Positions 3,021-59,889 of a stretch of 64,000 nt of DNA are shown in pieces. Within the stretch, counting starts at the first letter, position 1; every line of letters starts with the position of its first letter. A program made the translations under genes and the position numbers. The notes beneath the pieces were generated by a model. It was not told where the DNA came from. It did not search any database and was given only the letters and a program-made list of their open reading frames with translations. The DNA comes from a virus, in the IMG/VR virus record IMGVR_UViG_3300020160_001966, positions 52,360 through 116,359 of that record; one strand, written 5' to 3'.

Positions 3021-3230
3021 TTATTTTAAATGAAAATGTAAGGCTTTTGTAATTTTTCTCAAAATATCTCTATCAGATACCTTCTCGGCCTTTAATCTAG
3101 TTACTTCCTTTTTAAACGCATTAACAAATTCAGAAGATAAATTAAAATTTCTAGGGTAAAACATCCTAGACTTTGTTAATATTGAACCGTAACTCTCTAA
3201 AACTGTATTGACTTTTTTATAAAACTTCAC
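3021..3230 (-). CDS. Small hypothetical with capsid-targeting-like leader
   Basis: MKFYKKVNTVLE; TATAAATA (3236-3243, minus) 5 nt before GTG. Confidence 0.55.
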   Translation of the reverse strand: MKFYKKVNTVLESYGSILTKSRMFYPRNFNLSSEFVNAFKKEVTRLKAEKVSDRDILRKITKALHFHLK

Positions 3231-3238
3231 ATTATTAT

Positions 3239-3946
3239 TTATATCTTAATAATAGGAGTTTTCTCATCGTTCAAAGCTTCTTTTTGTTCATACAAAAGCT
3301 TTTGCATTTCTGCCAATTCGTTAATATCTAAAAGAGATTGATCCTCACCATACATATTACCATCATCTGTAACATACATGGCTATTTGAGCAATTCTTTC
3401 ATGCGGTTGACCATATATGTCGATAATAGCTGGTGCATTATCTTTTTCAAAGAAAGGTAGTTCTTCAGCACCTTTTTTATACTTCTTTAAGATTGCTTTA
3501 AATAAATTATCAATTTCTTCAACGTATTTAGGATCAACTTCTCTTACACCATTCTTTTCAATAGGAGGCATTAAATCTCTAGTACATATGAAAATGACAT
3601 CGAAATGCGCCATCGATTTCCTAACTTTAAATAAAGAATTTTCTATAAATTTATCGTTAAAACCTTTAACTCCATTACCATAACACCACATGGAATATAT
3701 TAAATTATCTAAAGGACATCTATCAAAAACAACATTTTGATGCAATGTGTAGGGTTCAGCTTCAGCGCATAAGATGTCTAAAATTTCTTCCTGCAATTTT
3801 GGAGTAGTATTTTTAGAATGATTTTTCTTTTTAATCAATTTCCTATAATTACTATTAATTAGTTGATATTTAGGCCATTTTTGCAAAAAATGTTGAATTA
3901 TTGTACTTTTACCAGTACATGCGGCTCCACTAAATGCAATTCTCAT
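3239..3946 (-). CDS. P-loop nucleotide kinase (AAA_28/dNMP-kinase-like)
   Basis: IAFSGAACTGKST Walker A, VVFDRCPLD. Confidence 0.75.
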   Translation of the reverse strand: MRIAFSGAACTGKSTIIQHFLQKWPKYQLINSNYRKLIKKKNHSKNTTPKLQEEILDILCAEAEPYTLHQNVVFDRCPLDNLIYSMWCYGNGVKGFNDKFIENSLFKVRKSMAHFDVIFICTRDLMPPIEKNGVREVDPKYVEEIDNLFKAILKKYKKGAEELPFFEKDNAPAIIDIYGQPHERIAQIAMYVTDDGNMYGEDQSLLDINELAEMQKLLYEQKEALNDEKTPIIKI

Positions 3947-3952
3947 AATGAT

Positions 3953-3980
3953 ATATTATCTCAAAAATTACAATATTCAA
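3953..3980 (-). promoter_or_regulatory. Sigma70-type early promoter
   Basis: TTGAAT-N16-TAATAT, 6 nt before ATG 3946. Confidence 0.55.
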
Positions 3981-4000
3981 CTAAAATATATTACCAAACA

Positions 4001-5236
4001 TTATCTAGATTGTATTCTAGCAGGAGGTCTATCTGCTGTAGGAGATTGTTGTTGTCTAACAGAAGGTCTATTAGTTGTTTGAGACTCTTGGCTGTTCTTC
4101 TCATCTTCCTTTTTACCACCTGAGAAAAAGTTTTTAATCGATGTGCCAACATCTCCAGCAAAATTGGAAGCAGAACCAGCGGCACCGCTCATTCCAGATT
4201 GTGGTCTAAAATCTTTACCTTCTCTTCTAACCTGAACATATTCTGGTTTATTATACTCACCTCTACCTTTTTTTGGATTTCTGATATATAATTGAGTTTT
4301 TGGATTATTAACATCTTCCTGTGTTGCTGGTCTATATTTCCCACCACCCATATCAACATATGATGGAAGAGTGTCTTTTCCAAATTTGATAGGCGTTGGT
4401 ACTTGATATTTTGGGGTCTGATCCGATGTTGTGGGTGTCGTTGAAGATCCTTGAACATTTCTTCCTAAAGTAGCTGCATTTTTATAATCAGATGAAGCAT
4501 ATGCCTTGTTTATGATGGGTTGAAACTTTTTAACATCATCTGGATTGTTTATATCGAATCTTTTACCGTTATTATCGTAAAATTGTTTTAAAGCAGATTT
4601 TAATACTTCATTTTTACCTTTATCTAATGAACTTGCTGAATCATATTCACCACCCATGTATTTTTTAAACACATTTTTAAGTCTTTCATCAGCGGCTAAT
4701 TCAGCTTCACTTCCAGTAGCTTGTGTCGTTTTTTCCGCTTCTGAAGATACTTCATTTCCAGCAGTTTCTTGTGACGGCGCGGCATCTACTCCACCATCTG
4801 GTACACTCACAGGTTCAATTTCTTCTATAGATGCATCTTTGCCAGCAGTGGGAGTTTCACTTTCAACTTCTTCTGGAGTATCACCAGAGTTTATTATCTC
4901 TATTACAACTGGTTGAAAATCTGAATTATAAACACTTGGAAATACAGTTACTAAATTGTTTTGAAATTCTCTAAAAGCATTTGTGGCTTTTTGATCATTG
5001 GAATTTAGATAAGCTTTACCAGCATCTGTATTTGCAGCATCTTTATATCCATTTAAAAATTCCAAAGCTTTTTCATACATGCTAACGCCGCCAGGTGTTT
5101 CGACTTTAGGATTATTTAAAAATTCCTTTTTTTGTTCTTCGGATAAATTTGAAAAATAATTGTTAAATTTAATTATTTTAGAAATTACATCTTCCATGTT
5201 ATTTTCATTCTGTTCTCTCAATATTTTATATTTCAT
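4001..5236 (-). CDS. Hypothetical low-complexity protein, candidate internal head protein
   Basis: Likely start MKYKILREQ at 5236 (the upstream extension overlaps the previous gene); acidic/Thr-rich linkers. Confidence 0.55.
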   Translation of the reverse strand: MKYKILREQNENNMEDVISKIIKFNNYFSNLSEEQKKEFLNNPKVETPGGVSMYEKALEFLNGYKDAANTDAGKAYLNSNDQKATNAFREFQNNLVTVFPSVYNSDFQPVVIEIINSGDTPEEVESETPTAGKDASIEEIEPVSVPDGGVDAAPSQETAGNEVSSEAEKTTQATGSEAELAADERLKNVFKKYMGGEYDSASSLDKGKNEVLKSALKQFYDNNGKRFDINNPDDVKKFQPIINKAYASSDYKNAATLGRNVQGSSTTPTTSDQTPKYQVPTPIKFGKDTLPSYVDMGGGKYRPATQEDVNNPKTQLYIRNPKKGRGEYNKPEYVQVRREGKDFRPQSGMSGAAGSASNFAGDVGTSIKNFFSGGKKEDEKNSQESQTTNRPSVRQQQSPTADRPPARIQSR

Positions 5237-5243
5237 AATACTA

Positions 5244-6041
5244 TTAAAAAGTGGGTTCTGGCAAGTTTGCACTTGAAGATGATCTTTTAGGTTTAGGTGA
5301 TGGTTTAGGGGATGGGGAAGGCGATGCTTTAGGAGTTGCTTTTGAAGATGGTGAGGGGGTTGGTTTTGGTGATGGTTTACCATTCTCGGAATCTTGAGGT
5401 TGATTTTCATCAGATGATGTAGACATCGCAACATTCGCACCAACATGTGCCAATAATGTTCTAGCACCAATAGCACCTAAAACTGCAACTAAAATTTCTT
5501 GCATATTTTTTGGTGAAGATTTAAATATTGTTTTAAAACCATTTATAAATTCTGGTTTTGAAAAAATAATATTTAGTATTTTTTGAATAATAGCCATTAT
5601 ACCTTTAAAAACATAAGCATTTTTGGATGCAGCACTTATAGCAGAACCGCCTTTCCAAGCCACTTTCAAAACCTTTAATCTACCAATCATTGGTATTGAG
5701 AAGAATATACTCAATAAAAGTTCAAATTTATTTTCATCTGAAGGATCGGATTGGTATTTTTTTAAATTTTTTTCAACATCTGGCCAACTGGTAATGCCTG
5801 TTGGATCAAGACATGATAAAAATTCCCCAATTGGATGTTCGAGTATTCCTTGCAAATCGATCAATCCATCAGTGCTTCTTTTTATGGATTCCATAAAATC
5901 TGAAGTTAAACTATATTTTCCAGAAAAATATCCTGCTATCGGTGCTGCTATAGCGGCTAACAACGCTAACGGCACTGCTTCATTTATAAGTTGTACATTA
6001 TTTTTATAATTTTCAAAAATTAACTCGCAGTCTTTATTCAT
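5244..6041 (-). CDS. Hypothetical with hydrophobic helices and Pro/Ser/Lys tail; candidate ejection protein
   Basis: MNKDCELIFENY...LINEA leader; AVPLALLAAIAAPIAGYF; DPTGITSWPDV...IPMIG; TAAATA upstream. Confidence 0.55.
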   Translation of the reverse strand: MNKDCELIFENYKNNVQLINEAVPLALLAAIAAPIAGYFSGKYSLTSDFMESIKRSTDGLIDLQGILEHPIGEFLSCLDPTGITSWPDVEKNLKKYQSDPSDENKFELLLSIFFSIPMIGRLKVLKVAWKGGSAISAASKNAYVFKGIMAIIQKILNIIFSKPEFINGFKTIFKSSPKNMQEILVAVLGAIGARTLLAHVGANVAMSTSSDENQPQDSENGKPSPKPTPSPSSKATPKASPSPSPKPSPKPKRSSSSANLPEPTF

Positions 6042-6114
6042 AATATCTTTATTTATTTAGTTTTTTTTTATTTATGATATCAATTTAAGGTTTGAGTTTA
6101 TAATACAAATATTT

Positions 6115-7453: not shown

Positions 7454-7491
7454 ATGTATTATATACTAATAATAAATAAAATTACAAAATA

Positions 7492-8238
7492 TTATTTATT
7501 AATAAAATTTTGTAATTTCTTACCACTCTCAGAATTTGATATAGCACCCCATGCTTGAGATAATGTTCCTTGTAAAGCTTTTTGCATTGCAGATGTTGAA
7601 AAATCCATAACAGCGTTTCCAGCATTTTGTAAAGTATCTTTCCAAGAATTATTTTCTGGTGGCGTGGTATTACCATCTTTATCAACATTTTCTTCTTTAT
7701 CATCTGGAATTGTATTATTCTGTTCTATTCCAACCTTAGAAGATCTTGCAACTCCAAGATGAACGTGATCATAATGATTACCACCAACATTTGATAACCA
7801 AATAATCTGGATTCTAAAACCATCTGGTGTATAATATTTGAAATCTCTACCCTCATAAGGTTTCCAAGAAGTAACATTTGCTCCACAATTTCTAGCAACA
7901 GCTATTGCAAATTGCGTTCCAGCCTCAACGTTTCCATTAAATGTCGTATTCAAACCAAAATCTGCTGCATATGCTGTCGTATTTCCAACATAATGATCTG
8001 ACATATACCCCGATTTCGTATTTTTTGTCCCCCTTTTTAAAGAATATGCTTTCCAATTACCCATGGGTAAAAGCGATATAAGTTTTGGCATGGAACCTCC
8101 CCAATCCCCATTTGAACCTCCAGCACTAGGTTGACCAGATGCATTTGCAACACCCACCAATGACCCTAAAGGGTTTTTATATGCCTCAAGAATAATATTA
8201 TATTGTTTTAATATATTATGTGTGTCGGAATTAAACAT
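7492..8238 (-). CDS. Peptidase M15-like Zn peptidoglycan hydrolase
   Basis: SDH-x7-AAD and HYDHVH Zn-ligand motifs. Confidence 0.6.
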   Translation of the reverse strand: MFNSDTHNILKQYNIILEAYKNPLGSLVGVANASGQPSAGGSNGDWGGSMPKLISLLPMGNWKAYSLKRGTKNTKSGYMSDHYVGNTTAYAADFGLNTTFNGNVEAGTQFAIAVARNCGANVTSWKPYEGRDFKYYTPDGFRIQIIWLSNVGGNHYDHVHLGVARSSKVGIEQNNTIPDDKEENVDKDGNTTPPENNSWKDTLQNAGNAVMDFSTSAMQKALQGTLSQAWGAISNSESGKKLQNFINK

Positions 8239-8244: not shown

Positions 8245-8919
8245 TTATTTCATATAGCTACTCATAAAATCTTCGTATTTTTTACCAATAGCCCCCTTTG
8301 CTGTATTTAAAACAGAAGATAATGCTTTTTTCATTCCCTCTTTACTAAAATCCCCACCAGTTAAATCATATACTTGTTGTTTAACATCATCGTATGTACT
8401 AGATGCAACATCTCCAATTTTAGACAATGTATCATTTTCTTCCGAACCATTATCACTTTCATCGTTTGATTTAATATTTGAAACTATTTCTCTTTCGTAA
8501 TCGGAATTAGGTTTTATATTTAAAGGTGTAACTACCAAGTTATTACTATTTTTACCCAAATTTGCAAAATAATTGTACATTTGTTTATCAGATCCAGAGT
8601 AAAAATCTATATTGTTTGTGACAGAACCACCACCTTTATCATCAACTCTATATATACCTTCAGTATTTCCAAATTCAGAACCTACAGGTCTTCCAGTTCT
8701 TTTATCTACTATTTTGACAATAGTACCGTGTGGAAGTTTATTATTTGCTACAGAATATCCTGCTATTAATTTGTTGTTTTTATTTCCCATGTATTGCCAC
8801 TCTGGTTTCAATATACCGTTCCTTATTTCACTTGCAGTTGTGCTATCAATATCAGCATTTCCATAAGCTGTGGCTCCAAACATATATTTTTCCAAAACAA
8901 ATTGTTTAAATGTTCTCAC
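8245..8919 (-). CDS. 3D-domain (MltA/RlpA-like) peptidoglycan-active protein
   Basis: ATAY, VANNKLPHGTIVKI, YRVDDKGG, NIDFY; starts MRTFKQFVLE. Confidence 0.7.
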   Translation of the reverse strand: MRTFKQFVLEKYMFGATAYGNADIDSTTASEIRNGILKPEWQYMGNKNNKLIAGYSVANNKLPHGTIVKIVDKRTGRPVGSEFGNTEGIYRVDDKGGGSVTNNIDFYSGSDKQMYNYFANLGKNSNNLVVTPLNIKPNSDYEREIVSNIKSNDESDNGSEENDTLSKIGDVASSTYDDVKQQVYDLTGGDFSKEGMKKALSSVLNTAKGAIGKKYEDFMSSYMK

Positions 8920-8957: not shown

Positions 8958-9482
8958 ATGGTTGGAAAAAAAGATACAGTAATGATATTTGAAAAATATC
9001 GCAACGTTTTAGCTGAACAACAACAAAACAATAATATACAGTCTATAATAAATCAAATAAACACTTCAGCTTTAGCTCCAGAAGTTAAACAAGGTCTAGT
9101 TTCTTTATTAAAAAATCCCGAAGTTGCATCTAAATGGCAAAGTGGTGATGCTGATACTGTGAATGCTGGTGATTCAAATTTTGCTAAAGAATTATCAATG
9201 GCAAAATATGGCGCTCCAGATCAAGATTTAGCAAATGCTCCAGATCCCAATTTTGCTAAAGAAATGGCCGCTGAAAGAGCTAAACAACAAAAGCAATATC
9301 CAGAACAAGAAGAAAACGAAGAATCTCCAGTAAATTGTGCAACTCTCCCCACACCAGAGGAAAGAAACAATTGTAACGTTAGAAGAAAACAAGTTGCAAT
9401 CAACAGTTTTTCAAAAATTCAAAATCCAGAGAAAAAAACGGTTTATAACGATCCTAACACCAGCAATAAAAGCTGGTTTTAA
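8958..9482 (+). CDS. Hypothetical with capsid-targeting-like leader
   Basis: KKDTVMIFEKYRNVLAEQ; CTAAATA 7 nt upstream. Confidence 0.55.
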   Translation: MVGKKDTVMIFEKYRNVLAEQQQNNNIQSIINQINTSALAPEVKQGLVSLLKNPEVASKWQSGDADTVNAGDSNFAKELSMAKYGAPDQDLANAPDPNFAKEMAAERAKQQKQYPEQEENEESPVNCATLPTPEERNNCNVRRKQVAINSFSKIQNPEKKTVYNDPNTSNKSWF

Positions 9483-9812: not shown

Positions 9813-9841
9813 ATTAAAATTTAGAAAGATTTTTTAAAAAA

Positions 9842-10204: not shown

Positions 10205-10218
10205 AGTGAAATTATTTA

Positions 10219-10692
10219 TTATTTTTGAAGTGTTTTTCTATACAAATTTAAAATATCCTCATCATTTAAACCCATTTGCTTTAGATAAGTTTCTATGAAA
10301 GATATATCATTTGATGTTATTGCTTGTTGAACATCTGCGGATTCCAAATCCTTACCAAGTTCTTTCAATTTTTCGACAAGGTGTTTTTTAAATGTTGAAA
10401 GTCTTGAGCTATTAATTTTCGTTGCTTTTCCAGTTTCTTGAGTATTTTCATCTTCAACAGGCTCCAAATTAGACTTAGAGACAGTTTGAATAGGATTAAT
10501 TCCTGTTGGAGTGTTGATAATGAAAACTTTGAACTCTGTGGGAGAACCTCCACATTCTTGCAATACATATCCTTCATAATAAGGTGAATTGATTATACCC
10601 AACTTCTCAGACCACATAGGATCTACCTTAATGCGGACTTTTTGAAGTTTTGTTGTTCCAATCGCTTTTTCCAACAGGTTTAAAAATTTCAC
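10219..10692 (-). CDS. Hypothetical with capsid-targeting-like leader
   Basis: MKFLNLLEK; TATAAATA (10698-10705, minus) 5 nt before GTG. Confidence 0.55.
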   Translation of the reverse strand: MKFLNLLEKAIGTTKLQKVRIKVDPMWSEKLGIINSPYYEGYVLQECGGSPTEFKVFIINTPTGINPIQTVSKSNLEPVEDENTQETGKATKINSSRLSTFKKHLVEKLKELGKDLESADVQQAITSNDISFIETYLKQMGLNDEDILNLYRKTLQK

Positions 10693-10727: not shown

Positions 10728-11138
10728 TTAGTCTTTTTTACTAACATCAACCAACCCACCATTTATTTTAATAAATGGTTCTCCCAATAACACCTTATAT
10801 TCATTTTCCGTTCTATCCGCAATTGAAAATGGAACGTTGGAATATTTTTTACCATTTATAGAAACATTAAATTCAACCACTGGTCTATTTTCTTTATTGC
10901 CAGATCCTATATGTATTTTTATATCGTCTTTAAATGGACATGTTATTATTTTCCCATCTATGGTTTCGAACGTAACTTGTCCGTTTTTAGTAGCTTTGAC
11001 TATACCATGTAAAACATTGTGTGCGGTATTTCCAGTATCTGTTTTTGCTTTTAAAAATCCAATACCTTCAATTTCAATATCCTCTACAATACCTAGAGCT
11101 TTTTCTAAAATAGTTTTATATAGTTTTATAAATTTCAC
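10728..11138 (-). CDS. Retropepsin-like aspartic protease (RimK-associated family)
   Basis: AKTDTGN catalytic motif, R.V.F.V.I..., FSIADR, YKVLLG..F. Confidence 0.75.
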   Translation of the reverse strand: MKFIKLYKTILEKALGIVEDIEIEGIGFLKAKTDTGNTAHNVLHGIVKATKNGQVTFETIDGKIITCPFKDDIKIHIGSGNKENRPVVEFNVSINGKKYSNVPFSIADRTENEYKVLLGEPFIKINGGLVDVSKKD

Positions 11139-11163: not shown

Positions 11164-12777
11164 GTGAATAAAGATTGTTATTTAATTTTTGAACAATATA
11201 GATTAATTTCAGAAAATTTAATTCTAGAAAATGTACAAAAGGCTATAGAAATAAGAAACAAATATTACCCATCTTTAAAATATCAAGGAGAATTGATAGG
11301 AGATTATGAAGTTGAGGAAATATACAACGCCTTGGCTAGACAGCAAGTGGCGAAAACGATATATTTGAATTGGATATTCCTTTTAATACAAAATCGTGTT
11401 CCTAGAATAATGGAAGATTTACAAACAATAGCCAAAAATTTAAAAGTTTTTAATTCCAAGAGTAGTAAAATAGCAGCAGATGGATACCCAACTCAACTTT
11501 TCAAACCAAATAAAGAATTAATATATAAAACACCTCAAGACTTATATAAAGTTGTTGAAAATTATATGAATACTGATGATGTTGGTGAAAGAGGATTGTT
11601 AAAAACAGCTGAATATTTGAAATCAAAAGGAGAAGTTGGAAAAATTTATGAAGATGATGTTTATGCGGTTTATACTCCAAAAACATATGATGCATCGAAA
11701 GAATTAGCGTGTTTGACTAATTGGTGTACTAGGTTTCCAGACATGTATAAAAGATATTCTGGTGATGGACCTTTATATATTATTTTAAACAAACAATCTC
11801 TTGGCAATACGGAAGATAATAATAGAATGATACAATTTCATATTCCCTCAAAACAATTTAAAGATATAAAAGATAGAGAAATTAGAGAAAGACCCGTATT
11901 TATGAATAATTTGAAAGGTTTATTCAATACATTATACCCTAATGCATTATCTCAATTTAAAAAATTATCCAATGGTGAAATTGAAAGATCGGAATTAAGT
12001 GACGAAGCTAAACAATCTTTATATCTGATGCCTCAAGAATATAAAGAAGGATTGAATTTACCTTGTGGTGAAATGGAAGAAAAAATAGCCTCTGAATTAG
12101 GTGTTGATTGTGCTTTGGTTTTTGAAACTGACGGAAGATATGAAGTCAATGGTGAAATTTATGAGGTGCAAGAAGTATCACAAGTTAAAAATCAAGCAGT
12201 AGAAGGTATATTAGATTCTGGACTGGAAAGTGATTGGTTTTACAAAAATGTTTTAGATTATGGTAGACAGTATTCATGGGAAACAATTTACCGAAAAGAA
12301 GAATACGAAAACACACATTGGAATCAAAGAAAATATGAATTTGAAGATTTATTTGGAAATGATAATTATGTTGAAATTTATAATGAACATTTAAAACCTT
12401 ATCTGTCTGAAGAAGAAGAATATAAAGTTAGAAAAGCTACAGAATATGGTTACGATACATGGGTTGAAACAAAATTACCACCAAAAGTTTACGATGAGTA
12501 TGATTTGGAAGATGGTTCTTATTTGAAAGATGTCCCATATGAAGTGTATATAAGTTTCATGGAAGACTTTAGAGGAGATAATCCCATAAAATGGTATGTT
12601 GAAGAAAGAGGAGATAACGTTCAAGACATACCTAACATAGATTTGGATGCAGCTGTTGGTGAATTTGTTGAAAATTTAAATTGGGATGACTTGGTATCAT
12701 GGTCAGGAAGCTACGATGGTACAGGTTATAATTTTGATTTAAACGGTACGGAATATATGTTATACAGGATGGAGTAG
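11164..12777 (+). CDS. Large hypothetical (PcfJ-like central motif, acidic C-terminus)
   Basis: YEDDVYAVYTPKTYDAS...TNWCTR...Y...GPLYII; leader MNKDCYLIFEQY...LILE. Confidence 0.5.
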   Translation: MNKDCYLIFEQYRLISENLILENVQKAIEIRNKYYPSLKYQGELIGDYEVEEIYNALARQQVAKTIYLNWIFLLIQNRVPRIMEDLQTIAKNLKVFNSKSSKIAADGYPTQLFKPNKELIYKTPQDLYKVVENYMNTDDVGERGLLKTAEYLKSKGEVGKIYEDDVYAVYTPKTYDASKELACLTNWCTRFPDMYKRYSGDGPLYIILNKQSLGNTEDNNRMIQFHIPSKQFKDIKDREIRERPVFMNNLKGLFNTLYPNALSQFKKLSNGEIERSELSDEAKQSLYLMPQEYKEGLNLPCGEMEEKIASELGVDCALVFETDGRYEVNGEIYEVQEVSQVKNQAVEGILDSGLESDWFYKNVLDYGRQYSWETIYRKEEYENTHWNQRKYEFEDLFGNDNYVEIYNEHLKPYLSEEEEYKVRKATEYGYDTWVETKLPPKVYDEYDLEDGSYLKDVPYEVYISFMEDFRGDNPIKWYVEERGDNVQDIPNIDLDAAVGEFVENLNWDDLVSWSGSYDGTGYNFDLNGTEYMLYRME

Positions 12778-12780: not shown

Positions 12781-13059
12781 TTACCAATTTTTACAACTTA
12801 AATATTTTGCCGTACCTGGCTTTGCCGTAGAGCATTTATGTCTAGCTCGAAAAGATTTTTTACGTTTTGTATTTCCACTCTTTCCAGTAACTTTCACACC
12901 CTTTTGCCCAAAATGTACTCTTTTATAACCTTTTCCTTTTGGGTTTTTCACACACTGCATCCATTTTTTACCTTTGGCTGTTGAAGATGTTTTTTTAGTT
13001 GGGCCAGTACATTTTGAGGATTCTAATAAAACATTAACCAATTGATCGAAATTATTCAT
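12781..13059 (-). CDS. Small basic Cys-containing protein
   Basis: MNNFDQLVNVLLES; VHFGQKG...RKKSFRARHKC...YLSCKNW. Confidence 0.6.
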   Translation of the reverse strand: MNNFDQLVNVLLESSKCTGPTKKTSSTAKGKKWMQCVKNPKGKGYKRVHFGQKGVKVTGKSGNTKRKKSFRARHKCSTAKPGTAKYLSCKNW

Positions 13060-13089: not shown

Positions 13090-13695
13090 ATGAGTAGAAA
13101 AAATAGTCTTTTGGAAATTTCCAAAGCTTATGAACAAATTTTAAACGAAATGAATATTGGGATAGATTCATCTGCTCAAAACACTTTGTTGAAAAACACA
13201 ATGAAGCCATATGCATCCGAAAAAAAAGAATATCAATTCGTGATTCCCAAAAAACAATCTTCTAAACAAATGTTTAATACAGCTATGAAAGGGGATTTAG
13301 AAGGTGGTAAATGCCCTTGCGATTCCAATAAATGTGGAGAGCAAAATGACGAAGAAGAATCCAATGAAGATTCCAATTTAAACATGGCAAAATCAGAAAC
13401 TTATAAAATATTAAATTATGCAAAAGATTTGATGGAATTGTTGGAAAAAACTGATAAAATAGAGGCATGGATGTTAGCAAAATTAGTAAATGCAGCAGAT
13501 TATTTGTGTTCAGTAAGAGGCGTATTGGAATACGAAGATTACGAACAAAATGTCAAACAGTGCGTTGATGATTTATCAAGTGATATGAAAATCGTAACCC
13601 ATATAAATAATATGCTTAGTGGAGAAAACGAACATGTTAATGAAGAAGTTTTAAAAAGAGCAATTTTTAATTTGGAGATATTAAGATCAAAATGA
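13090..13695 (+). CDS. Hypothetical, candidate head-associated protein
   Basis: Start MSRKNSLLEISKAYEQILNE at 13090; MAKSETYKI...EAWMLAKL..AADYL block. Confidence 0.55.
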   Translation: MSRKNSLLEISKAYEQILNEMNIGIDSSAQNTLLKNTMKPYASEKKEYQFVIPKKQSSKQMFNTAMKGDLEGGKCPCDSNKCGEQNDEEESNEDSNLNMAKSETYKILNYAKDLMELLEKTDKIEAWMLAKLVNAADYLCSVRGVLEYEDYEQNVKQCVDDLSSDMKIVTHINNMLSGENEHVNEEVLKRAIFNLEILRSK

Positions 13696-14078
13696 GTAGA
13701 TTTCACACATTATTAAACAGAGCGTATAGGGAGATAATAACAGAACAAGAACAACCTCCAGTTCCACAAGGAACCCCTGAACAAGCAGTACCAACACCTA
13801 TTCCAGAAGTTCCTGAAACTCAACCACAACCTCAATCCCCAATTAAACCTTTAACATCAGAAGGTGAAACAGTTTTGGTTAGAATATTAGCTAAAGCTAT
13901 ATTAGTGGATATAACAGATCCAGTAGATGAACTTTCTGTTAAAGATATTTCTGAGAACAAAATCAATGCAGAAAACGCCCAAGAGTCTTTAACAAAATTA
14001 GTATCTATCATAAGAAAATATGATCAATCTGTTTCTAATGAGTTAGATATAGACAAGATTTTTCAATCAACTAAATAA
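13692..14078 (+). CDS. Hypothetical with leader and Pro/Gln-rich linker
   Basis: MSRFHTLLNRAYREIITEQ; ATGA overlap with previous gene. Confidence 0.55.
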   Translation: MSRFHTLLNRAYREIITEQEQPPVPQGTPEQAVPTPIPEVPETQPQPQSPIKPLTSEGETVLVRILAKAILVDITDPVDELSVKDISENKINAENAQESLTKLVSIIRKYDQSVSNELDIDKIFQSTK

Positions 14079-14597: not shown

Positions 14598-15083
14598 TCA
14601 ATAGGTAAAATTTTTCTTTTTTGATAATCTTACGTTAATTATTCCATTTATTGATTTTTCCTCAAAGAGACAATTGTTATCTACTTGATATTTCATTTCA
14701 CAATATTTCAATTCAAATTTTCCACCTCTAACTATAGTTAGAATTTCAAAATTGATATTTTCTTTACCTTTTTTTGAAATATAATCCTTAATATAATTAG
14801 AAGACGATGAGTAATCTTTCCAATCGCTTTCAACTATTCGCCTTCTGGCATTTGTTCTACCCTTTAATGGTTTTAACTTTTTTTTTGAATTGAATTGTTT
14901 AGATCCTATATACCAGCAACCGTCAGGTAGTGTTATTTTGTAAACAAATCCGAATAAATTAGAATTTAAATTACCAAAATAGTTTATATTTTCGGCAATA
15001 ATCCAGTGTCCACATTCTTTAAGATCTATTTCTAGTTCTTTTGTTTCTTTTTCGTTTTCTTCTTTTGGCGTTTTTTTTGGCAT
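14598..15083 (-). CDS. GIY-YIG-like nuclease-domain protein (start uncertain)
   Basis: FGFVYKIT...WYIGSKQF...ESDWKDYSSSS...E. Confidence 0.55.
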   Translation of the reverse strand: MPKKTPKEENEKETKELEIDLKECGHWIIAENINYFGNLNSNLFGFVYKITLPDGCWYIGSKQFNSKKKLKPLKGRTNARRRIVESDWKDYSSSSNYIKDYISKKGKENINFEILTIVRGGKFELKYCEMKYQVDNNCLFEEKSINGIINVRLSKKKNFTY

Positions 15084-15255
15084 TTCTTTTAAATGTTCCT
15101 AACACGTGTGCTATTTGTGTGCTTCCACTATTCCAAAAATCACTGTTACCAAAATCCCCTCCGTGATTAAATGAAGACCCATCCCCAAAAACCCCACCTC
15201 CTCCAGAGGCGTTATCTTCTAAAATAGTGTTAACTGTTGCATCAAAAAGTCTCAT
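15019..15255 (-). CDS. Small Gly-rich protein with basic tail and leader
   Basis: MRLFDATVNTILED; C-terminal KRRKRKRNKR. Confidence 0.5.
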   Translation of the reverse strand: MRLFDATVNTILEDNASGGGGVFGDGSSFNHGGDFGNSDFWNSGSTQIAHVLGTFKRNAKKNAKRRKRKRNKRTRNRS

Positions 15256-37376: not shown

Positions 37377-37976
37377 ATGAACAAATATATAATTTATCTT
37401 TTAGGCTGTATTTTATTCTCCTTTGGAGCTACACTATTTATTACTAGCAATTTGGGTACTGACCCCTTGGATGTTCTGGCTATTGGAATGAAAGACACAT
37501 TTGGTTGGATGATAGGTACAACTCAAAGCGTTTTCGCATTATGTTGTTTATTTCTATATAGTTATTTGAATAAATGGAAATTCCCACCAATCTCAACCTT
37601 CTTGACTTTTTTCATATGTGGATATCTTATAGATTTTTTTCTATTTTTATTAAACCATCAACACATTGTTAATCCATTTCTGGAAATGCTTTTTGGGGTT
37701 ATTATTTGTACCCAAGCTAGTGCTTTAATAATGATGTCTGGATTTGGTATAAGAGCCATGGATTTGGTTGCAATATCATTATCCGAGATAACCAAAAAAC
37801 CATTTTGGCTGTTTAAAGGTATTGCCGAGGTATTGCTTTTGACCGTTGGTTATTTTTTGGGAGGCATTGTTGGTATCGGCACTATTTTCTTTTTACTATT
37901 TGTGGGTTGGTTAATACAACCATGTATTCGTTTAAATAGTAAATTGGGAATACCTAATTACGGCAAGGTTCATTAA
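37377..37976 (+). CDS. YczE/YyaS/YitT-family membrane protein
   Basis: Multi-TM; LGTDPLDVL, GIGTI; internal two-fold repeat. Confidence 0.75.
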   Translation: MNKYIIYLLGCILFSFGATLFITSNLGTDPLDVLAIGMKDTFGWMIGTTQSVFALCCLFLYSYLNKWKFPPISTFLTFFICGYLIDFFLFLLNHQHIVNPFLEMLFGVIICTQASALIMMSGFGIRAMDLVAISLSEITKKPFWLFKGIAEVLLLTVGYFLGGIVGIGTIFFLLFVGWLIQPCIRLNSKLGIPNYGKVH

Positions 37977-38392
37977 TCTTGCTCACCAGCAATTAAGTAT
38001 CCCTTTAATGCTTCAGCTAAACCGCTGAGTTCAACTGCTATACGAGATATTCTACGATGTTCCGAGGATGCTATTTTCTCGAAAAGGGTATCGCAACCAG
38101 CATTGTGTAATTGAGCTTGAACGGATGTTTGATTCACACCATTCACATATTCAACAAATTTTTCAATTTCTGCAACCCATTCAGATAAAATTTTCTTTTG
38201 TTTAGCTAAAGATTCTTTTCTAATAACTTCAACTTGACCAACATCTGTATTGAAAGATTCTGGTGGTGTCCCAGCATCTAATTCAGCGGTCATAGCTGCT
38301 GTTTCCGCATTCGCGGTAGCTTCTGGTGCAGCCACAGCCTCTTGTTCATCTTGTTCCAAGATGGCGTTGAAATATTTTTCGTATATACCCAT
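37973..38392 (-). CDS. Hypothetical with leader
   Basis: MGIYEKYFNAILEQ; TAAATA 5 nt upstream. Confidence 0.55.
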   Translation of the reverse strand: MGIYEKYFNAILEQDEQEAVAAPEATANAETAAMTAELDAGTPPESFNTDVGQVEVIRKESLAKQKKILSEWVAEIEKFVEYVNGVNQTSVQAQLHNAGCDTLFEKIASSEHRRISRIAVELSGLAEALKGYLIAGEQD

Positions 38393-38430: not shown

Positions 38431-38817
38431 ATGAAAGAAAATTTTAAAATACTTCAAGAAGACGATCAAAAAATATACAATAAATGGGTTAAAGGTATAG
38501 CAAAACAGGAAGCTCCGTCTCAAGTTATTACAGTTGATGATATTGTAAATAGATATAGAAATAATGTTTCCTATGAAGCTAGTAGGCAATTACCATTTGG
38601 TTTAGATTTTTTATTGGATAGAATAGGTGATATTTTCGTAAAATGTTCAAATGTGAGAATGGATTTGGCAAATGCTATGAAGAATCCAGTCATATATGAA
38701 CATAATCAAAGAATATCAGCTGTTAAAAAATTGAATGATAAAATAGACAAAGTACAAGAAATGTTATTTTCCTGTACGGAAGAGATGAATGAAATAGTTG
38801 AAAGTCACGAAAAGTGA
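38431..38817 (+). CDS. Hypothetical with short leader
   Basis: MKENFKILQED; CTAAATA 10 nt upstream. Confidence 0.5.
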   Translation: MKENFKILQEDDQKIYNKWVKGIAKQEAPSQVITVDDIVNRYRNNVSYEASRQLPFGLDFLLDRIGDIFVKCSNVRMDLANAMKNPVIYEHNQRISAVKKLNDKIDKVQEMLFSCTEEMNEIVESHEK

Positions 38818-39987: not shown

Positions 39988-40708
39988 TGCTCATATCGAA
40001 TACGAATTTTTTAGATTCGGTGTCTGAATCTTGTGGATATGATGATAGTCTTTCTGTTGGGGTTTGTAAAGACCCCGACAGATCTCCATAGAATGTATCA
40101 TCATGTACTTGATAATTTCCCTTTTCTTGGGGTATATTCTCAAAAGAATGTTCAAGACGTTTAGCTTTCAATAACCAAACATAATGGCCAGCTAAAGGAT
40201 TTATGGAAGAATTGTCCTCATCACATCTTTCTGTAATTTCGTACATTTTACCGTCTCTTTCACCAGGTCTATCTGAACCGTATTCCACTAATTTAAAAAC
40301 ATCTCCAGATTTAGGTTCTAATTTTTTATCTGGAAAATGAGCATAAAATGAACTTATGTGTAAATATGCTGTTACTTGATCATCAGATCTATAGCCGAAT
40401 TTTGATAATACCAAAGCATTCTCAGCCAAAGTGAATATCATTATCATCTCTTTAGGTTCTTCGAATTGATCGACTGGCATTTCCCCATAAGTATTATCAC
40501 CGTCTTTTAAATTGTATAAATTTCTATAATACAATATTTTTTGACCATATAAATCTATTTGCTCTCTCCAATAATTACTATATAATAATCTTTCAGCTTC
40601 ATTTTTTTCTTTATCTGTAAAACGCAATGTTGATGACACATAGTTATTGTAATTATCGGGATAAGTCCTGATACAATTCACACCTTTATGTTTATCGTAA
40701 GTTATCAT
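39953..40708 (-). CDS. gp14: Neck protein (gp14-like)
   Basis: EQIDLYGQ...Y, YGE, LSKFG, PKSGD..KL. Confidence 0.75.
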   Translation of the reverse strand: MITYDKHKGVNCIRTYPDNYNNYVSSTLRFTDKEKNEAERLLYSNYWREQIDLYGQKILYYRNLYNLKDGDNTYGEMPVDQFEEPKEMIMIFTLAENALVLSKFGYRSDDQVTAYLHISSFYAHFPDKKLEPKSGDVFKLVEYGSDRPGERDGKMYEITERCDEDNSSINPLAGHYVWLLKAKRLEHSFENIPQEKGNYQVHDDTFYGDLSGSLQTPTERLSSYPQDSDTESKKFVFDMSINNTLEYGGYY

Positions 40709-41085
40709 TTTTTTAATATAAAGGATTTTTTACTATCATCCCAAACTATTTGTATTCCAGTATTTCCTAATTTTTTTGGTTCCGTTTTAGATACGCTATA
40801 TATACCATATTTTTTACATACCTTTTTCAATTGTACACTATTTAAAGGGACATTCACAGATGGATTATTTTTCAATTTCTCCACTTGCTGAATGATTGTC
40901 ATATCTGGTTTATGCATATCTGGAACAGTTTGTGCATGTTTTCTTTTAAAAGGATCTAATATTAAAGACCTTCTGTGTCTGGCTCCCTTTTTTATAGGTG
41001 GTTTTTGTGGTAAAAACATGTTCACGTAACCATGATTCCATGTTTGCTCTAAAATAATAGAAAATGTTTTTGCGAATAGCCCCAT
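40705..41085 (-). CDS. Hypothetical basic protein with leader
   Basis: Start MGLFAKTFSIILEQ at 41085; TAAATA 5 nt upstream. Confidence 0.55.
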   Translation of the reverse strand: MGLFAKTFSIILEQTWNHGYVNMFLPQKPPIKKGARHRRSLILDPFKRKHAQTVPDMHKPDMTIIQQVEKLKNNPSVNVPLNSVQLKKVCKKYGIYSVSKTEPKKLGNTGIQIVWDDSKKSFILKK

Positions 41086-41101: not shown

Positions 41102-42925
41102 TTATGCTTCTGGAGTTGGAGCCTTACCTTCGTTACTAGGTGGAGGCGTTGGGGCCGATGCTCCAGATGGAGGAGGTCCAAAATCTGGTGGGGCTTCTTC
41201 CGCACCACCTCCTGCTCCACCTATTGGTGATCCAGCAGGAGCGCCACCACCACTTCCAGTCGGAATAGCTCCACCACTTCCAGCAGCCATAGGTTGCCCT
41301 TCTACAACTTCACCTCCAGCGGTTGTCAATTGCCTCCAATTTGGTCCCATAGCTGTGATTTGAGCCAATTCAAATTCCAATTCTTTATCCTTTTTCAAGA
41401 ATGCTCTATTTGCTAAAATTTCTTGATCACTCCATCTCAAATATTTTTTCTGAGCATATGTTTTTGATATGGATTCGTTTTGAGTCATATTGTTGAATGT
41501 TGTGTATTTTATTTCAGCCTTTTGAGCCTCTCTCATTTCAAAAAAGTTGGTTGGTGGGGTAAATTTGATATCAAAGTCTGTTTCTTTAACATCATATTTA
41601 CTCCATAATTTTTTTAATTTTAAATGCACTATAAAAGTATTCTTTAAACTTTCCGCAAAATGCATTTGCATACGCATAATAAATTTAGCAAATTTTAATT
41701 CCTCTCTCAAAATTTGCATACCATCACCATATGCTGAATCTGGAGCTATTCTATTGACAGGTACTTTTAAAGATTTATACAATTTGATTAAAAAATAATC
41801 CAAATCTGGCAAAGTGTTTAATTGAGGTCCACCTTGAAGCTCTCTAACATCTGTTCCTTCAGAACCTTGTCTTTTTGCAAACCAATAATTATCCAAATAA
41901 CTCTGAGGATTGAATTTGTTCACTTGACCAGCTTGATCAACATCAAATGTTCTTTTAGACCAATAATCTTGAATCATTTTTCTCAAATATGATTCAGCTT
42001 TAGGTGCTGGCATTGTTCCAACATCAACGTTGAAAACTAGTCTTGAAGGCGCTCTTGCTAGTCTATGAATGACTACACTATCTTCTATCAGAGATAGTTG
42101 ACGATATGCGCGTCTAGCGTTTTCAATGAAAGGTATTCTCATTGTTTTATTTTCATTCCATATTCCAGAATTGACATATGTAATTTGATTTTTATCCATA
42201 GGCACTAAAGCATAATCAACCACTTTAGATGGATTTGTCTGATCGAATACAGGTTTTCTTAAAAGAAATCCTTTTATCAACATGTTTTGAATATTTCCAA
42301 AAATAGGATCTATTAGTTCTGTTGGAACACTGACAACACCGAGTACACCTTCTTCTTCTCTTTCTTTATGTATAATGTTTTCCCAATATAATTCTCCATC
42401 AACCATTACATTTCTAAAATACTCCCAACCCTTTTTTTCAAATTCAAAATAATTTATAATTTTATCAAATTCTTCTGTTAAATCAGATTTTGCGTCAGAT
42501 TTTAAATCTTCATTGGGGAATTCCAATTTAACAATCTTGTTATTCTCATCTTTATTAACAGATTCATCACATATTTCATCCAATGCTTCAGCCACTTCCG
42601 AAAAAGCTGCCATTACTCTATAGTCACGCAATCTTGCAATTTTATCCGCTTGGACATTCGCATACATGTATTGTGTGAAATTCGAATCAATATTAAAAAA
42701 TGCCGTTGGAGATAACTCGTTATATTCTGAAGATGAACTTATACTCTGTCTAGCTAACGCTTCTGTCCTTTTGGAACCCGTATCTTGGAAAGATTTAAAC
42801 TTTGGATTTAATTTAGAGATGGTATCTATTACAGTATATGACTGATATGGAAGGTATGAATTTACATAATTCATTAAGCTTCTTCCAAATGTAGACTCTC
42901 TTCCTGATGATGAATTTGTTGGCAC
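41102..42925 (-). CDS. gp20: Portal vertex protein
   Basis: EVAEALDEI, VDGELY, LIEDSVVIHRLARAPSRLVF.VDVG.MP..KAE.Y, EDY-like NYWF.KR.G..GT; GTG 42925 lies 5 nt after TATAAATA (42931-42938). Confidence 0.95.
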   Translation of the reverse strand: MPTNSSSGRESTFGRSLMNYVNSYLPYQSYTVIDTISKLNPKFKSFQDTGSKRTEALARQSISSSSEYNELSPTAFFNIDSNFTQYMYANVQADKIARLRDYRVMAAFSEVAEALDEICDESVNKDENNKIVKLEFPNEDLKSDAKSDLTEEFDKIINYFEFEKKGWEYFRNVMVDGELYWENIIHKEREEEGVLGVVSVPTELIDPIFGNIQNMLIKGFLLRKPVFDQTNPSKVVDYALVPMDKNQITYVNSGIWNENKTMRIPFIENARRAYRQLSLIEDSVVIHRLARAPSRLVFNVDVGTMPAPKAESYLRKMIQDYWSKRTFDVDQAGQVNKFNPQSYLDNYWFAKRQGSEGTDVRELQGGPQLNTLPDLDYFLIKLYKSLKVPVNRIAPDSAYGDGMQILREELKFAKFIMRMQMHFAESLKNTFIVHLKLKKLWSKYDVKETDFDIKFTPPTNFFEMREAQKAEIKYTTFNNMTQNESISKTYAQKKYLRWSDQEILANRAFLKKDKELEFELAQITAMGPNWRQLTTAGGEVVEGQPMAAGSGGAIPTGSGGGAPAGSPIGGAGGGAEEAPPDFGPPPSGASAPTPPPSNEGKAPTPEA

Positions 42926-43004
42926 AGTATTATTTATATCGGAAAATGCTAAAGAAAACAAATTTTATCATTGGAATGTTTATAAAACGTGATAATATTG
43001 ATAT

Positions 43005-57667: not shown

Positions 57668-57673
57668 TTTTTA

Positions 57674-58768
57674 ATGAAAGTGAATATACCAACAGAGGAA
57701 GATTGTTTTAATATCGTTCCTAACAAATTTTGTGGTTTGGATTGTTATTTAATAACTCCAGAAATCGATGCGAAGTGGACTAGTAACAATTTATTTTACA
57801 GATCTTTAATTACAGATAAAGATGGAAATGTTTTATCTTCTGGTTTTCCTAAATTTTTTAATTATGGGGAGAAGACAAACTGTTATCCAGACCCTCAAAT
57901 TTTTAATGATTGGAGATGCGAAGATAAGATTGATGGTTCTTTGCTTATAGCTGATTATGTAAATGATCAATTTTCTATGAGAACGAGAGGAACTGTTTCA
58001 TACTCCACTCAAGAAAACTTTAAAGATTTTGAGAGATTGCCAGAAAAATATCCAGAAGTTGTTAATTTTTTAAAAAATAATCAGCATTTGAGTCTTTTGT
58101 TCGAGATTGTTACACCGAACAATGTGATTGTTGTTAGAGCTTCTCAGATAGAATTTTACCTCATAGGTGCTATAAACAAGAATGGTATGTGTGTTGTTTC
58201 CTCTGCCGATTTGACTGATATATGGAGGAAGATAGGTCCGATACCTACACCACAATCTTATAACTTCTTAGACACTAATGATCTTTCTAAGATAGCAGAA
58301 AATATAAAATATTGGAAGGGTAAAGAGGGTATTGTTGTTTCTTACAATAATGGTCAAAATAGAATCAAATTAAAATCAGATTGGTATTTGTTTTGTCACA
58401 GAGTTAAATCGCAACTCAGTTCTACTAAAAATCTTATTGATTATTATATAGATAATAACATGCCTTCTTATGAAGAATTTTATAAAATGATTGAAACAGA
58501 ATTTGATTATGAGATTGCTATTCAATTAAAATGGGAATTGGAAAAAATTTGCGAAGCAGGAGAAAAATCGAAAAAATATATTGATCATATACTAGAAGTA
58601 GTACATGATATTAGAAAAGTAGAAACGAGAAAAGAACAAGCAGAAATGATATTGAGAAATTTTAAAGATAATTCATCATTTGTATTTTCTGTTTTAGACG
58701 GTAAAAAAATAACCAAAGATCAATGGATTAATTTGATGAAACAAAATTTAATCATCTCACAGGATTGA
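57674..58768 (+). CDS. rnlA: T4 Rnl1-like RNA ligase
   Basis: FPKFFN, KIDGS (motif I), TRG, FEI, EGIV, KLKSDWY. Confidence 0.8.
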   Translation: MKVNIPTEEDCFNIVPNKFCGLDCYLITPEIDAKWTSNNLFYRSLITDKDGNVLSSGFPKFFNYGEKTNCYPDPQIFNDWRCEDKIDGSLLIADYVNDQFSMRTRGTVSYSTQENFKDFERLPEKYPEVVNFLKNNQHLSLLFEIVTPNNVIVVRASQIEFYLIGAINKNGMCVVSSADLTDIWRKIGPIPTPQSYNFLDTNDLSKIAENIKYWKGKEGIVVSYNNGQNRIKLKSDWYLFCHRVKSQLSSTKNLIDYYIDNNMPSYEEFYKMIETEFDYEIAIQLKWELEKICEAGEKSKKYIDHILEVVHDIRKVETRKEQAEMILRNFKDNSSFVFSVLDGKKITKDQWINLMKQNLIISQD

Positions 58769-59429
58769 TTTCGAAGGTTTTGTGTTTCATTACAATTTCC
58801 GCTGGAACGTATAAAGTCATGTCGAAATTGCCAAAACGTCTTCTAGTGTAGAAGACTGCTTCTTTGTTTGGTATAAGAACCGCATCTTCTTTAATATCTG
58901 TATATTTGACAGCTTCTTTGTTTGAGGTATGAAATAATTCTACACCCCTACCTTCTCCTCTCTTAGAGAAAAGTCCTAAAGATTCTATTTCTTTTAAAAG
59001 AGGGTGTCTTTTAACCATATCGAAACCTCCTCTTGAAGTATTGTAAAATGCTATGTAGTTCGCCTCACCATACATCCATCCTTTATGTCCCTTATTGCCT
59101 ACAAATTCCAATAATAAGTTATCTGTTCCTATCAATCTTTTGTCGTTTTTAACTTCAACATAACAAGATTTATTTTTAGCAACCTTACCCGCATTTTCAG
59201 GTCTATCCCCCCATGCAGGTTCTCCTTTATCTAATACTTTAAAATCGATGTGTAGAACTGTCTCTTCGTATTGATCTGCTTGTTTACATTTTAATTTATT
59301 CTGTTTACACAATTGTACGAATAAATCTTCGTAAGCTTGCCCTCTAGCTTCATCTCTTTCGGCATTACTGGCATTTTCTCCAGCATGAGCTTCTAATACT
59401 AAATTATAATAATTGTCGAAAAGATTCAT
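58752..59429 (-). CDS. PD-(D/E)XK restriction-like nuclease with leader
   Basis: G..YE, HIDF, YVEVK, LLEF, GWMYG.ANYIAF; starts MNLFDNYYNLVLEA. Confidence 0.6.
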   Translation of the reverse strand: MNLFDNYYNLVLEAHAGENASNAERDEARGQAYEDLFVQLCKQNKLKCKQADQYEETVLHIDFKVLDKGEPAWGDRPENAGKVAKNKSCYVEVKNDKRLIGTDNLLLEFVGNKGHKGWMYGEANYIAFYNTSRGGFDMVKRHPLLKEIESLGLFSKRGEGRGVELFHTSNKEAVKYTDIKEDAVLIPNKEAVFYTRRRFGNFDMTLYVPAEIVMKHKTFEINPVR

Positions 59430-59443
59430 ATTAACTATTTATG

Positions 59444-59704
59444 TCAAGATTTATCTCCCTTTTTCCAAGATATTCTTTTAGAACTTTTTTTATTTTTTTT
59501 TCTGGAATTGCACATTGCTTTGGTTGGTCTACATGCTGGATAACTTCTTCTTTTTTCTCCTTCTTGTCTACCACAAGGTTTTCCTGTTTTACAATCAATC
59601 CAACCCTTTCCTTTATTTCTATCGAACCAACCCTTTAATCCTTTTTTCTTTTCACTTTCAAATTTTTCTAAAAGTATATTAACGTATGATTGGAAATTAT
59701 TCAT
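59444..59704 (-). CDS. Small basic Cys-containing protein with leader
   Basis: MNNFQSYVNILLEK; GL..WF....W.DCKTGKPCGR...YPACRP. Confidence 0.6.
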   Translation of the reverse strand: MNNFQSYVNILLEKFESEKKKGLKGWFDRNKGKGWIDCKTGKPCGRQEGEKRRSYPACRPTKAMCNSRKKNKKSSKRISWKKGDKS

Positions 59705-59889
59705 TTGCTTTTATTTCCCCAATTTTTAGCTCCAGCTTTTCTACATTTTACTAAAGCTCCTGATGCATAAGCACTTGGCCAAACTTTATATCTGGATTTT
59801 ACTTTTTTATAACAAGCGTCTTGTTTCTTTTTAGTTTTAGCCTCGTTTATAATTTGTTTACAAAGGTTGTCAAAATTTGAAATGCTCAT
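59701..59889 (-). CDS. Small basic protein with leader
   Basis: NFDNLCKQIINEA; DACYKKVKSRYKVWPSAYASGALVKCR; TATAAATA 59905-59912 (minus). Confidence 0.65.
   Translation of the reverse strand: MSISNFDNLCKQIINEAKTKKKQDACYKKVKSRYKVWPSAYASGALVKCRKAGAKNWGNKSK

Follow-up and report, generated by a model that had tools for sequence, protein, structure and literature searches.

What is the function of the short N-terminal peptides with which about 20 otherwise unrelated proteins begin in a stretch of viral DNA of 64,000 nucleotides? This stretch, hereafter the window, comprises bases 52360–116359 of a 116,359-bp IMG/VR viral contig, which is estimated to be 55% complete. The initial annotation of the window had regarded these peptides, all ending in (I/L/V)-x-E, as leaders that direct proteins into the phage head and are cut off there by the prohead protease, and had concluded that the head carries a payload far larger and enzymatically more diverse than that of bacteriophage T4. 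The 20 N-termini listed there all translate as written. As judged by comparison with relatives, the peptides are probably T4-type capsid-targeting propeptides, and this reading of the initial annotation, including the large payload, is supported as the best explanation. The strongest evidence for it appears to be the exchange of leader forms on one mature domain among related phages. The enzymatic diversity of the payload is borne out only in part, with partial support from four proteins, because the cargo consists mostly of orphans and several acidic, disordered members resemble scaffold components.

The source of the DNA is a distant, uncultured T4-like myophage, because the contig encodes a major capsid protein of the gp23 family (phrog_138 at 8e-83; 32–34% identity to cyanophage gp23), a T4-type portal protein, a large terminase, a tail sheath and a tail tube. 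The genome has a G+C content of about 30%, and TATAAATA motifs are present besides the gp23-type capsid protein and the T4-type portal. The portal gene is a context gene without a leader:

41102..42961, minus strand: T4-type portal protein (PF07230 at 3.5e-99)

IMG/VR holds hundreds of related contigs. These include a complete genome of 229.7 kb (G001) and a contig of 91.8 kb (G010), which is syntenic with the present contig, encodes a portal 83% identical to that of the contig and extends about 5 kb past its right end.

Taken alone, the loose rule that a leader ends in [ILV]-x-E is weak evidence: such an ending at residues 8–23 is found in 58 of 154 genes (38%) as compared with about 22% (range 14–32%) of equal windows inside proteins. 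This part of the initial annotation gives way to two tighter motifs, class A and class B, which are far above chance and confined to N-termini. The class A motif is M-x-x-F-x-x-x-[VFY]-N-x-[IV]-L-E. Position 4 is F or Y in nine of the 11 seeds, and the aromatic residue lies one residue earlier in the other two; a second hydrophobic or aromatic residue follows 3–4 residues past the first aromatic one, and the seeds end in [IV]-L-E (nine) or L-L-E (two). In a leave-one-out position matrix, 10 of the 11 seeds score 9.1–19.9, whereas, of 1,903 candidate starts, the highest-scoring unrelated one reaches 9.6, and none of 30,739 internal positions scores 15 or more, with two reaching 10. The profile-versus-background check proposed in the initial annotation therefore places the class A signal far above chance, and the two backgrounds, candidate starts and internal positions, rule out composition as the cause of the motif. 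The class B motif is D-x-x-x-I-F-E-x-Y, that is, [ILVM]-F-E-x-Y after D-x-x-x. The sequence [ILVM]-F-E-x-Y occurs six times in 36,745 residues of contig proteins, and five of these occurrences are at residues 8–10.

The bearers are mutually unrelated, as had been claimed. Their mature parts have no BLAST similarity except for a C-terminal tag common to the proteins encoded at 7492–8238 and 8245–8919 and a weak pair formed by the protein at 5244–6041 and a 384-residue class A protein of the head module; paralogy is thereby ruled out as the cause of the shared N-termini. The tally of leader genes on the contig comes to about 23 good members and three weak ones, including six leader genes located to the left of the window (genome 14651, 18625, 20655, 21398, 39611 and 42516). 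The genes starting at 10692, 13692, 13090, 59889 and 38431 are probable members because their orthologues keep the Glu at the same junction, and the gene starting at 5236 is the weakest member.

The leaders are separable, interchangeable modules, because different forms are swapped on one mature domain. The exchange is seen in the families of two putative cell-wall hydrolases of the window:

7492..8238, minus strand: 248-residue LAS-type zinc-peptidase-like protein with the class B variant leader MFNSDTHNILKQYNIILE
8245..8919, minus strand: 224-residue 3D-domain protein with a GTG start, the T4-type 10-mer MRTFKQFVLE as leader and TATAAATA 5 nucleotides upstream

The 248-residue protein has 86 close homologues in public data, in which one mature domain carries three leader forms: class B in 44, a T4-like 10-mer in 25–26 and a 13-mer in three. 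Among 47 homologues of the 224-residue protein, the leader is a 10-mer such as MKTFKQFIAE in 31–33 and a 13-mer such as MNKFDSFCNQILE in 10. Orthologues of window proteins in G001 and G010 also change their leader type while always keeping the Glu at the same junction. The predicted retropepsin-like protease starting at 11138 has the junction MKFIKLYKTILE|KALG in the window and the 10-mer junction MRSYKEFFYE|QILG in G001 on the same mature protein; the small basic protein starting at 15255, whose leader has the top matrix score of 25.6, has MRLFDATVNTILE|DNASGGGG in the window and the T4-type MITFKQFVMNE|ENVAGDGG in G001. The conserved N-termini of homologues confirm the GTG start at 8919. One public gene call for this gene (P0098, 212 residues) begins 12 codons later and so trims the 12-residue leader of 8245–8919, a warning that standard gene callers can trim leaders with a GTG start.

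Assignment of the 248-residue protein to the LAS fold is weak. His82, Asp93, His158 and His160 are invariant in 54 sequences of its family. The AlphaFold2 model has a pLDDT of 76, with the leader forming a helix at residues 4–21 (pLDDT 80–89). The best rows of a VIA-align search with this model are LAS folds with Z scores of 3.3–5.2, all below 6; the top rows include 9flh (Z 5.2), 1lbu (Z 4.8), hedgehog, MepA and Ply500. No match was found in Pfam, among PDB sequences or by Foldseek (E <= 0.001). A LAS-fold zinc peptidase is suggested by these structural matches, which are the best ones but weak. The 224-residue protein is probably a cell-wall lytic enzyme, as judged from its sequence family, several members of which are named "3D domain proteins" by JGI. 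The C-termini of the two wall hydrolases (7492–7640 and 8245–8390) have in common a helical tag of about 35 residues, DFS...M.KAL...GAI, and homologues of the 3D protein have other recurrent C-termini such as ...GMGGGIK or ...KDFLGE. The recurrent C-terminal tag may be a second, C-terminal address or propeptide.

One of the leader forms is, in sequence, essentially the T4 signal. The T4 internal proteins IPII and IPIII start with MKTYQEFIAE, in agreement with the targeting sequence cited in the initial annotation. According to published accounts, residues 1–10 of IPIII are enough for packaging (PMC9026906; also PMC3012670), residues 4 and 7 of the signal serve targeting and residues 8 and 10 processing (PMC9026906), and the prohead protease gp21 cleaves after L/I-x-E (PMC9026906; also PMC3012670), in agreement with the cut site assumed in the initial annotation. 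The 10-mer form in the relatives is M-[IK]-[TS]-F-K-x-[FY]-[ILV]-x-E, and its member closest to the T4 peptide, MKTFKQFIAE, is identical to it at seven of 10 positions. Fifty distinct 10-mers were gathered from homologues of two cargo proteins with a filter that demanded E at position 10 and an aromatic F/Y at both position 4 and position 7. Because of this demand, the 50 peptides are not independent evidence for positions 4 and 7; position 8, on which the filter placed no condition, is I/L/V in 47 peptides and F in three, and positions 2, 3 and 5 are likewise T4-like.

The likeness to T4 thus extends to an aromatic residue at positions 4 and 7, I/L/V at position 8 and Glu at position 10, and it includes late expression and a T4-type head module. 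As with the T4 proteins IPI, IPII and IPIII and the propeptide of Alt, otherwise unrelated proteins have in common an N-terminal peptide some 10 residues long, and small basic proteins occur among the cargo as they do among the T4 internal proteins. Class B resembles other gp21-substrate sequences of T4, namely LDSIFES in gp22 and KIFEN in gp23. The present system differs from that of T4 in several respects. About 23 bearers are found on half a genome, whereas the review (PMC9026906) gives eight core and internal proteins for T4. Besides the 10-mer there are two additional leader forms (13-mer and D-x-x-x-IFE-x-Y); the cargo, as read from sequence, extends to wall hydrolases and a retropepsin-like protease; the starts are often GTG on apparently leaderless mRNAs; and in the sub-lineage of the contig the protease gene lies outside the head module.

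Another known system is that of the giant phages phiKZ, 201phi2-1 and SPN3US, in which a diverged protease of the gp21 family processes tens of head proteins after Glu and a large protein mass is ejected, according to the same review (PMC9026906). The sites in those phages are S/A-x-E, often internal and multiple, whereas here the address is conserved, modular and N-terminal; the passages of the review consulted (PMC9026906) do not mention a short conserved N-terminal address common to the substrates. The phage studied here also differs from them in being a true T4 relative of the gp23/gp20 type.

The claim that most leader genes lie just behind TAAATA late promoters holds: this motif is found 3–12 nucleotides upstream in 16 of 23 leader genes as compared with 23 of 132 other genes (Fisher p = 1.2e-6). 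The late-type genes that have no leader include those for the sheath, the tube, the terminase and the gp5-like hub, so that a late or leaderless message does not generally encode the leader. TATAAATA ends 5–7 nucleotides ahead of the start at 3230, 8919, 10692, 11138, 11164 and others, with no Shine-Dalgarno sequence, and the starts at these five positions are GTG. Probably, late mRNAs lack a 5' leader, and some apparently begin with GUG.

The head module itself contains leader genes. The gene directly downstream of the portal gene, the spot where T4 has genes 67/68, is as follows:

40705..41085, minus strand: 126-residue basic protein with the class A leader MGLFAKTFSIILE

Its leader and promoter spacing are kept in eight orthologues. 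Upstream of the scaffold and capsid genes are located a disordered, acidic 270-residue class B protein, a 134-residue protein and the 384-residue class A protein; the gene for the 270-residue protein immediately precedes the scaffold gene, with that for the 384-residue protein another 1.7 kb or so upstream. Over its final 29 or so residues, the 270-residue protein (genome 17813–18625) matches a separate open reading frame of 47–51 residues in relatives, which sits just upstream of the scaffold gene (L008 1175–1330; G001 around 100155–100241). A small core protein seems to have been fused here to a leader-bearing acidic protein.

On these grounds, the leader would act as a short amphipathic helix in which position 4 is aromatic, another aromatic or hydrophobic side chain follows after one helical turn, and the end is [ILV]-x-Glu. 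Late in infection, the leader would dock its protein on the scaffolding core of the prohead, and a prohead serine protease of the gp21 type (Peptidase_S77) would then cut past the Glu to set the mature protein free inside the head. Part of the cargo would stay with the DNA and be ejected into the next host, while the acidic, disordered members would more likely be disposable core or scaffold parts. The same job would be done by three forms, namely the T4-like 10-mer, the 13-mer with one extra turn (class A) and the D-x-x-x-I-F-E-x-Y form of about 12–20 residues (class B). We infer core binding, cleavage, packaging and ejection of the leader proteins. In a predicted complex of the scaffold protein with the first 48 residues of the LAS-like cargo, the score was 0.00, which is evidence neither way.

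The protease expected by this mechanism is common among relatives. All relatives tested whose capsid identity is at most 84% encode Peptidase_S77, with the gene some 1 kb ahead of the scaffold gene; the protease has been seen in G001–G005, G009, G012, G013 and nearly all other related loci. The N-terminus of the S77 protein, M[AS]L[RK]LLVE|TP, has a counterpart in MNEPQLLIE|T of T4 gp21, whose LLIE site is a likely self-cleavage site according to the review (PMC9026906). In G012 (45 kb, 29.5% G+C), the S77 gene lies at 9771–10445, at a distance from the capsid gene, with baseplate genes on one side and a leader-gene cluster on the other; the leader genes beside it include those beginning with MKSFKQYITE and MKDNDSLILENLY. 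The far-end gene of G012 and the first gene fragment of the contig are 46% identical. This arrangement fits a location of the protease gene in the missing part of the genome. Three entries in the protein collection (P0002, P0005 and P0097) are identical to window proteins and are recorded on a contig of 198,024 bp, and therefore a longer assembly of the phage exists; an exact-pattern scan of metagenome contigs for it found nothing, and megablast of a 4.7-kb stretch against cultured phages gave no match.

Several observations weigh against capsid targeting as the common function of the leaders. None of Peptidase_S77, S78, ClpP and S49 is found on the contig, which is about 55% complete. In the closest relatives, L006, L007, L008 and L021, which form a sub-lineage of 92% capsid identity together with the contig, other genes occupy the slot ahead of the scaffold gene in which the protease gene usually lies; the stretch of the contig at this slot (genome 16938–20655, left of the window) is likewise without Peptidase_S77. 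G010 has no S77 gene, although it stops short of the capsid module. The short leader forms of 8–10 residues are individually hard to tell from chance, and a loose 10-mer pattern also matches four unrelated starts. The class A gene at genome 39611 has no TAAATA close to its own start, and its flanking neighbours are read by eye as ribonucleotide reductase subunits. Finally, a location in the tail is conceivable for the two wall hydrolases, because wall hydrolases must act in the periplasm and because P0141, a metagenomic homologue of 8245–8919, has the 3D domain fused to Phage_base_V, a gp5-like baseplate hub (PF04717); the same 3D enzyme would therefore be tail-borne in some phages. As to the gene at genome 39213–39611, it encodes a 132-residue class A protein with the leader MKFDKLINQILE (phrog_17560) and is absent from G001 and G010.

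Among other explanations, the one that survives best also takes the leaders for propeptides removed by the protease, with most bearers being transient core or scaffold parts of the prohead, like T4 gp22, gp67 and gp68, that are degraded and expelled at maturation, so that no large payload is injected. Such a role would suit the acidic, Pro/Gln-rich and seemingly disordered bearers, namely the 270-residue protein of the head module and those encoded at 13692–14078, 37973–38392 and 28501–29166 (isoelectric point (pI) 4.1). The position of the 270-residue protein directly upstream of the scaffold gene and the resemblance of class B to sites within the T4 scaffold protein gp22 point the same way. 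However, folded enzymes (the LAS-like peptidase, the 3D-domain protein and the retropepsin-like protease) and small basic proteins (six with pI above 10) are also among the bearers, and a scaffold part would not require activities of this kind. Moreover, many of the bearer genes are missing from G001 and G010; such variable, accessory occurrence is typical of T4 internal proteins. As an account of most bearers, this explanation is unlikely; several acidic, disordered bearers do look more like core or scaffold parts.

It is quite improbable that the N-terminus is a recognition tag for a machine unrelated to the head, such as a modifying enzyme, a tail or baseplate assembly step or an export system. 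A methyltransferase gene (6692–7453) and a gene for a 197-residue protein do lie inside the densest leader cluster, and the tail tip would be the expected place for the two wall hydrolases, one of which has a homologue fused to a baseplate-hub domain. The leader genes, however, are scattered along a part of the contig exceeding 100 kb, and no enzyme gene constantly accompanies them: ten leaderless neighbours were scanned, the methyltransferase, an AAA ATPase and a SegE-type endonuclease among them, and none recurs beside leader genes. The tag also agrees at positions 4, 7, 8 and 10 with the capsid signal established by experiment in T4 and always ends in the cut motif of a protease family encoded by relatives. 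A Sec or Tat signal is unlikely because the hydrophobic stretch of the leader is, by eye, too short. Least credible of all is the idea that the motif meets a nucleotide-level or early-codon need in the translation of leaderless late mRNAs or arises from AT-rich codon usage, because, even though the starts lie 5–7 nucleotides behind TATAAATA, so that the mRNAs are probably almost without a 5' leader, and the genome has 30% G+C, 23 other genes with the same promoter spacing, including those for sheath, tube, terminase and gp5-like hub, lack the motif, three very different peptide forms substitute for each other on the same protein, and the motif is absent at 1,900 other candidate starts and at internal positions of the same composition.

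The reading of the leaders as capsid-targeting propeptides can be extended to a bolder proposal, which is doubtful as a whole. A three-part address grammar (10-mer, 13-mer and D-x-x-x-IFE-x-Y) would load at least 30 proteins per genome into the prohead, and cargo might be sorted by leader form into different amounts or layers. Head-delivered wall hydrolases, a nuclease and an aspartic protease would be part of the cargo, and in one sub-lineage the gene for the prohead protease would have moved from the capsid module to a place beside the cargo cluster. The principle is known from T4; new here are the three interchangeable forms on single families, the size of the set, the wall-hydrolase bearers and the displaced protease gene. 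If capsid targeting is correct, the T4 capsid-targeting signal would be a general, evolvable loading system of environmental T4-like phages, beyond three coliphage proteins, and a simple sequence rule would predict which orphan genes encode virion-delivered proteins such as anti-defence factors, nucleases and wall-degrading enzymes. The 13-mer (e.g. MNKFDSFCNQILE) and class B (e.g. MNKDTQMIFERY...E) would offer natural alternative tags for T4 protein-packaging technology.

The other leader-bearing proteins of the window are as follows:

3021..3230, minus strand: 69-residue basic protein (pI 10.2) with a GTG start, the class A leader MKFYKKVNTVLE and TATAAATA 6 nucleotides upstream
4001..5236, minus strand: 411-residue protein with the weak short leader MKYKILRE; the G010 orthologue begins MKYIME|Q
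5244..6041, minus strand: 265-residue protein with the class B leader MNKDCELIFENY...LINE and TAAATA upstream
8958..9482, plus strand: 174-residue protein with the class B leader MVGKKDTVMIFEKY...VLAE; the G010 orthologue begins MLGKKDNHDIFNQYKSILLE
10219..10692, minus strand: 157-residue protein with a GTG start, the short leader MKFLNLLE and TATAAATA 6 nucleotides upstream
10728..11138, minus strand: 136-residue predicted retropepsin-like protease with a GTG start and the class A leader MKFIKLYKTILE
11164..12777, plus strand: 537-residue acidic protein with a GTG start and the class B leader MNKDCYLIFEQY...LILE
12781..13059, minus strand: 92-residue very basic protein (pI 10.5) with the class A leader MNNFDQLVNVLLE
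13090..13695, plus strand: 201-residue acidic protein with the class B-like variant MSRKNSLLEISKAYEQILNE
13692..14078, plus strand: 128-residue acidic, Pro-rich protein with the 18-residue variant leader MSRFHTLLNRAYREIITE
15019..15255, minus strand: 78-residue protein (pI 11.5) with a Gly-rich middle, a Lys/Arg tail and the class A leader MRLFDATVNTILE
28501..29166, minus strand: 221-residue extremely acidic protein (pI 4.1) with the class B leader MRNNDQVAIFESY; the G010 start is MKDKDQVAIFESY
37973..38392, minus strand: 139-residue acidic protein with the class A leader MGIYEKYFNAILE
38431..38817, plus strand: 128-residue protein with the 10-residue leader-like start MKENFKILQE and TAAATA upstream
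58752..59429, minus strand: 225-residue protein with the class A leader MNLFDNYYNLVLE
59444..59704, minus strand: 86-residue very basic protein (30% Lys+Arg) with the class A leader MNNFQSYVNILLE
59701..59889, minus strand: 62-residue basic protein with the variant leader MSISNFDNLCKQIINE

Searches of Pfam and PHROGs with all 20 leader proteins left nearly all of them as orphans, and PDB sequence searches with four of them gave nothing useful. The recognisable cargo consists of the two putative cell-wall hydrolases, the retropepsin-like protease, a possible nuclease and seven small basic proteins, six with pI above 10 in the window and a seventh, Lys-rich one to the left of it. The protein at 10728–11138 is a retropepsin-like protease as predicted from a match of residues 19–135 to PF05618 (E = 7.1e-9; 36.1 bits against a gathering cut-off of 27). 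The protein at 58752–59429 is a possible PD-(D/E)xK nuclease: its leader and the invariant D62...E92-V-K94 are retained in homologues that align with 68% and 52% identity, and only a small number of cluster members carry the Atlas leads NOV_C and PDDEXK_14. The AlphaFold2 model, built from three sequences, reached a pLDDT of only 39, and the nuclease assignment is no more than a lead. The 411-residue protein at 4001..5236 has no Pfam or PHROG match; for the 537-residue protein no Pfam, PHROG or PDB family, no reliable Atlas lead and no orthologue in G001 or G010 was found. The protein at 5244..6041 is weakly similar to the 384-residue class A protein of the head module, and that at 12781..13059 matches DUF5754 at 1.1e-5, which is below the cut-off, as well as phrog_7595.

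Conservation among orthologues is seen at many of these junctions. The leader starting at 3230, with a leave-one-out score of 16.0, corresponds to MKFHKQANALLE in G010 and MLFDKNYNFIME in G001, and that at 10692 to MKFLNLLE|N in G010 and MLNKLIE|N in G001. The G010 orthologue of 12781..13059 is 90% identical and keeps the leader. For the gene starting at 13090, the orthologue starts are MTRKSSLLELSKAYEQVLEE (G010) and MSRKGELEKISEAYTQIV (G001), each behind TAAATA; for 13692 they are MSRFHKILNKGYKELITE|QDQPP and MKFNKLLETKYRELFE|QVPP, and for 38431 MRETFNILLE|DDQKIY and MKKRPSVLNE|DSMKLY. At 38392, the leader and TAAATA 6 nucleotides upstream are kept in seven of seven orthologues. The gene at 59444..59704 is the second of a small minus-strand operon beginning at 59889, the first product of which has a low class A score (3.7) and a mature part matching phrog_727 at 1.1e-21.

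Genes without leaders are interspersed among the leader genes. A class I S-adenosylmethionine (SAM) methyltransferase is encoded at 6692–7453 (PF13649 at 5e-9), and the overlapping gene at 6115–6708, for the 197-residue protein, has no Pfam match at E <= 0.01. An AAA_28 ATPase (3239–3946; 3e-13) and a SegE-type GIY-YIG homing endonuclease (14598–15083; 8.7e-24) are encoded inside the leader-gene cluster, which looks like a plastic region visited by mobile elements.

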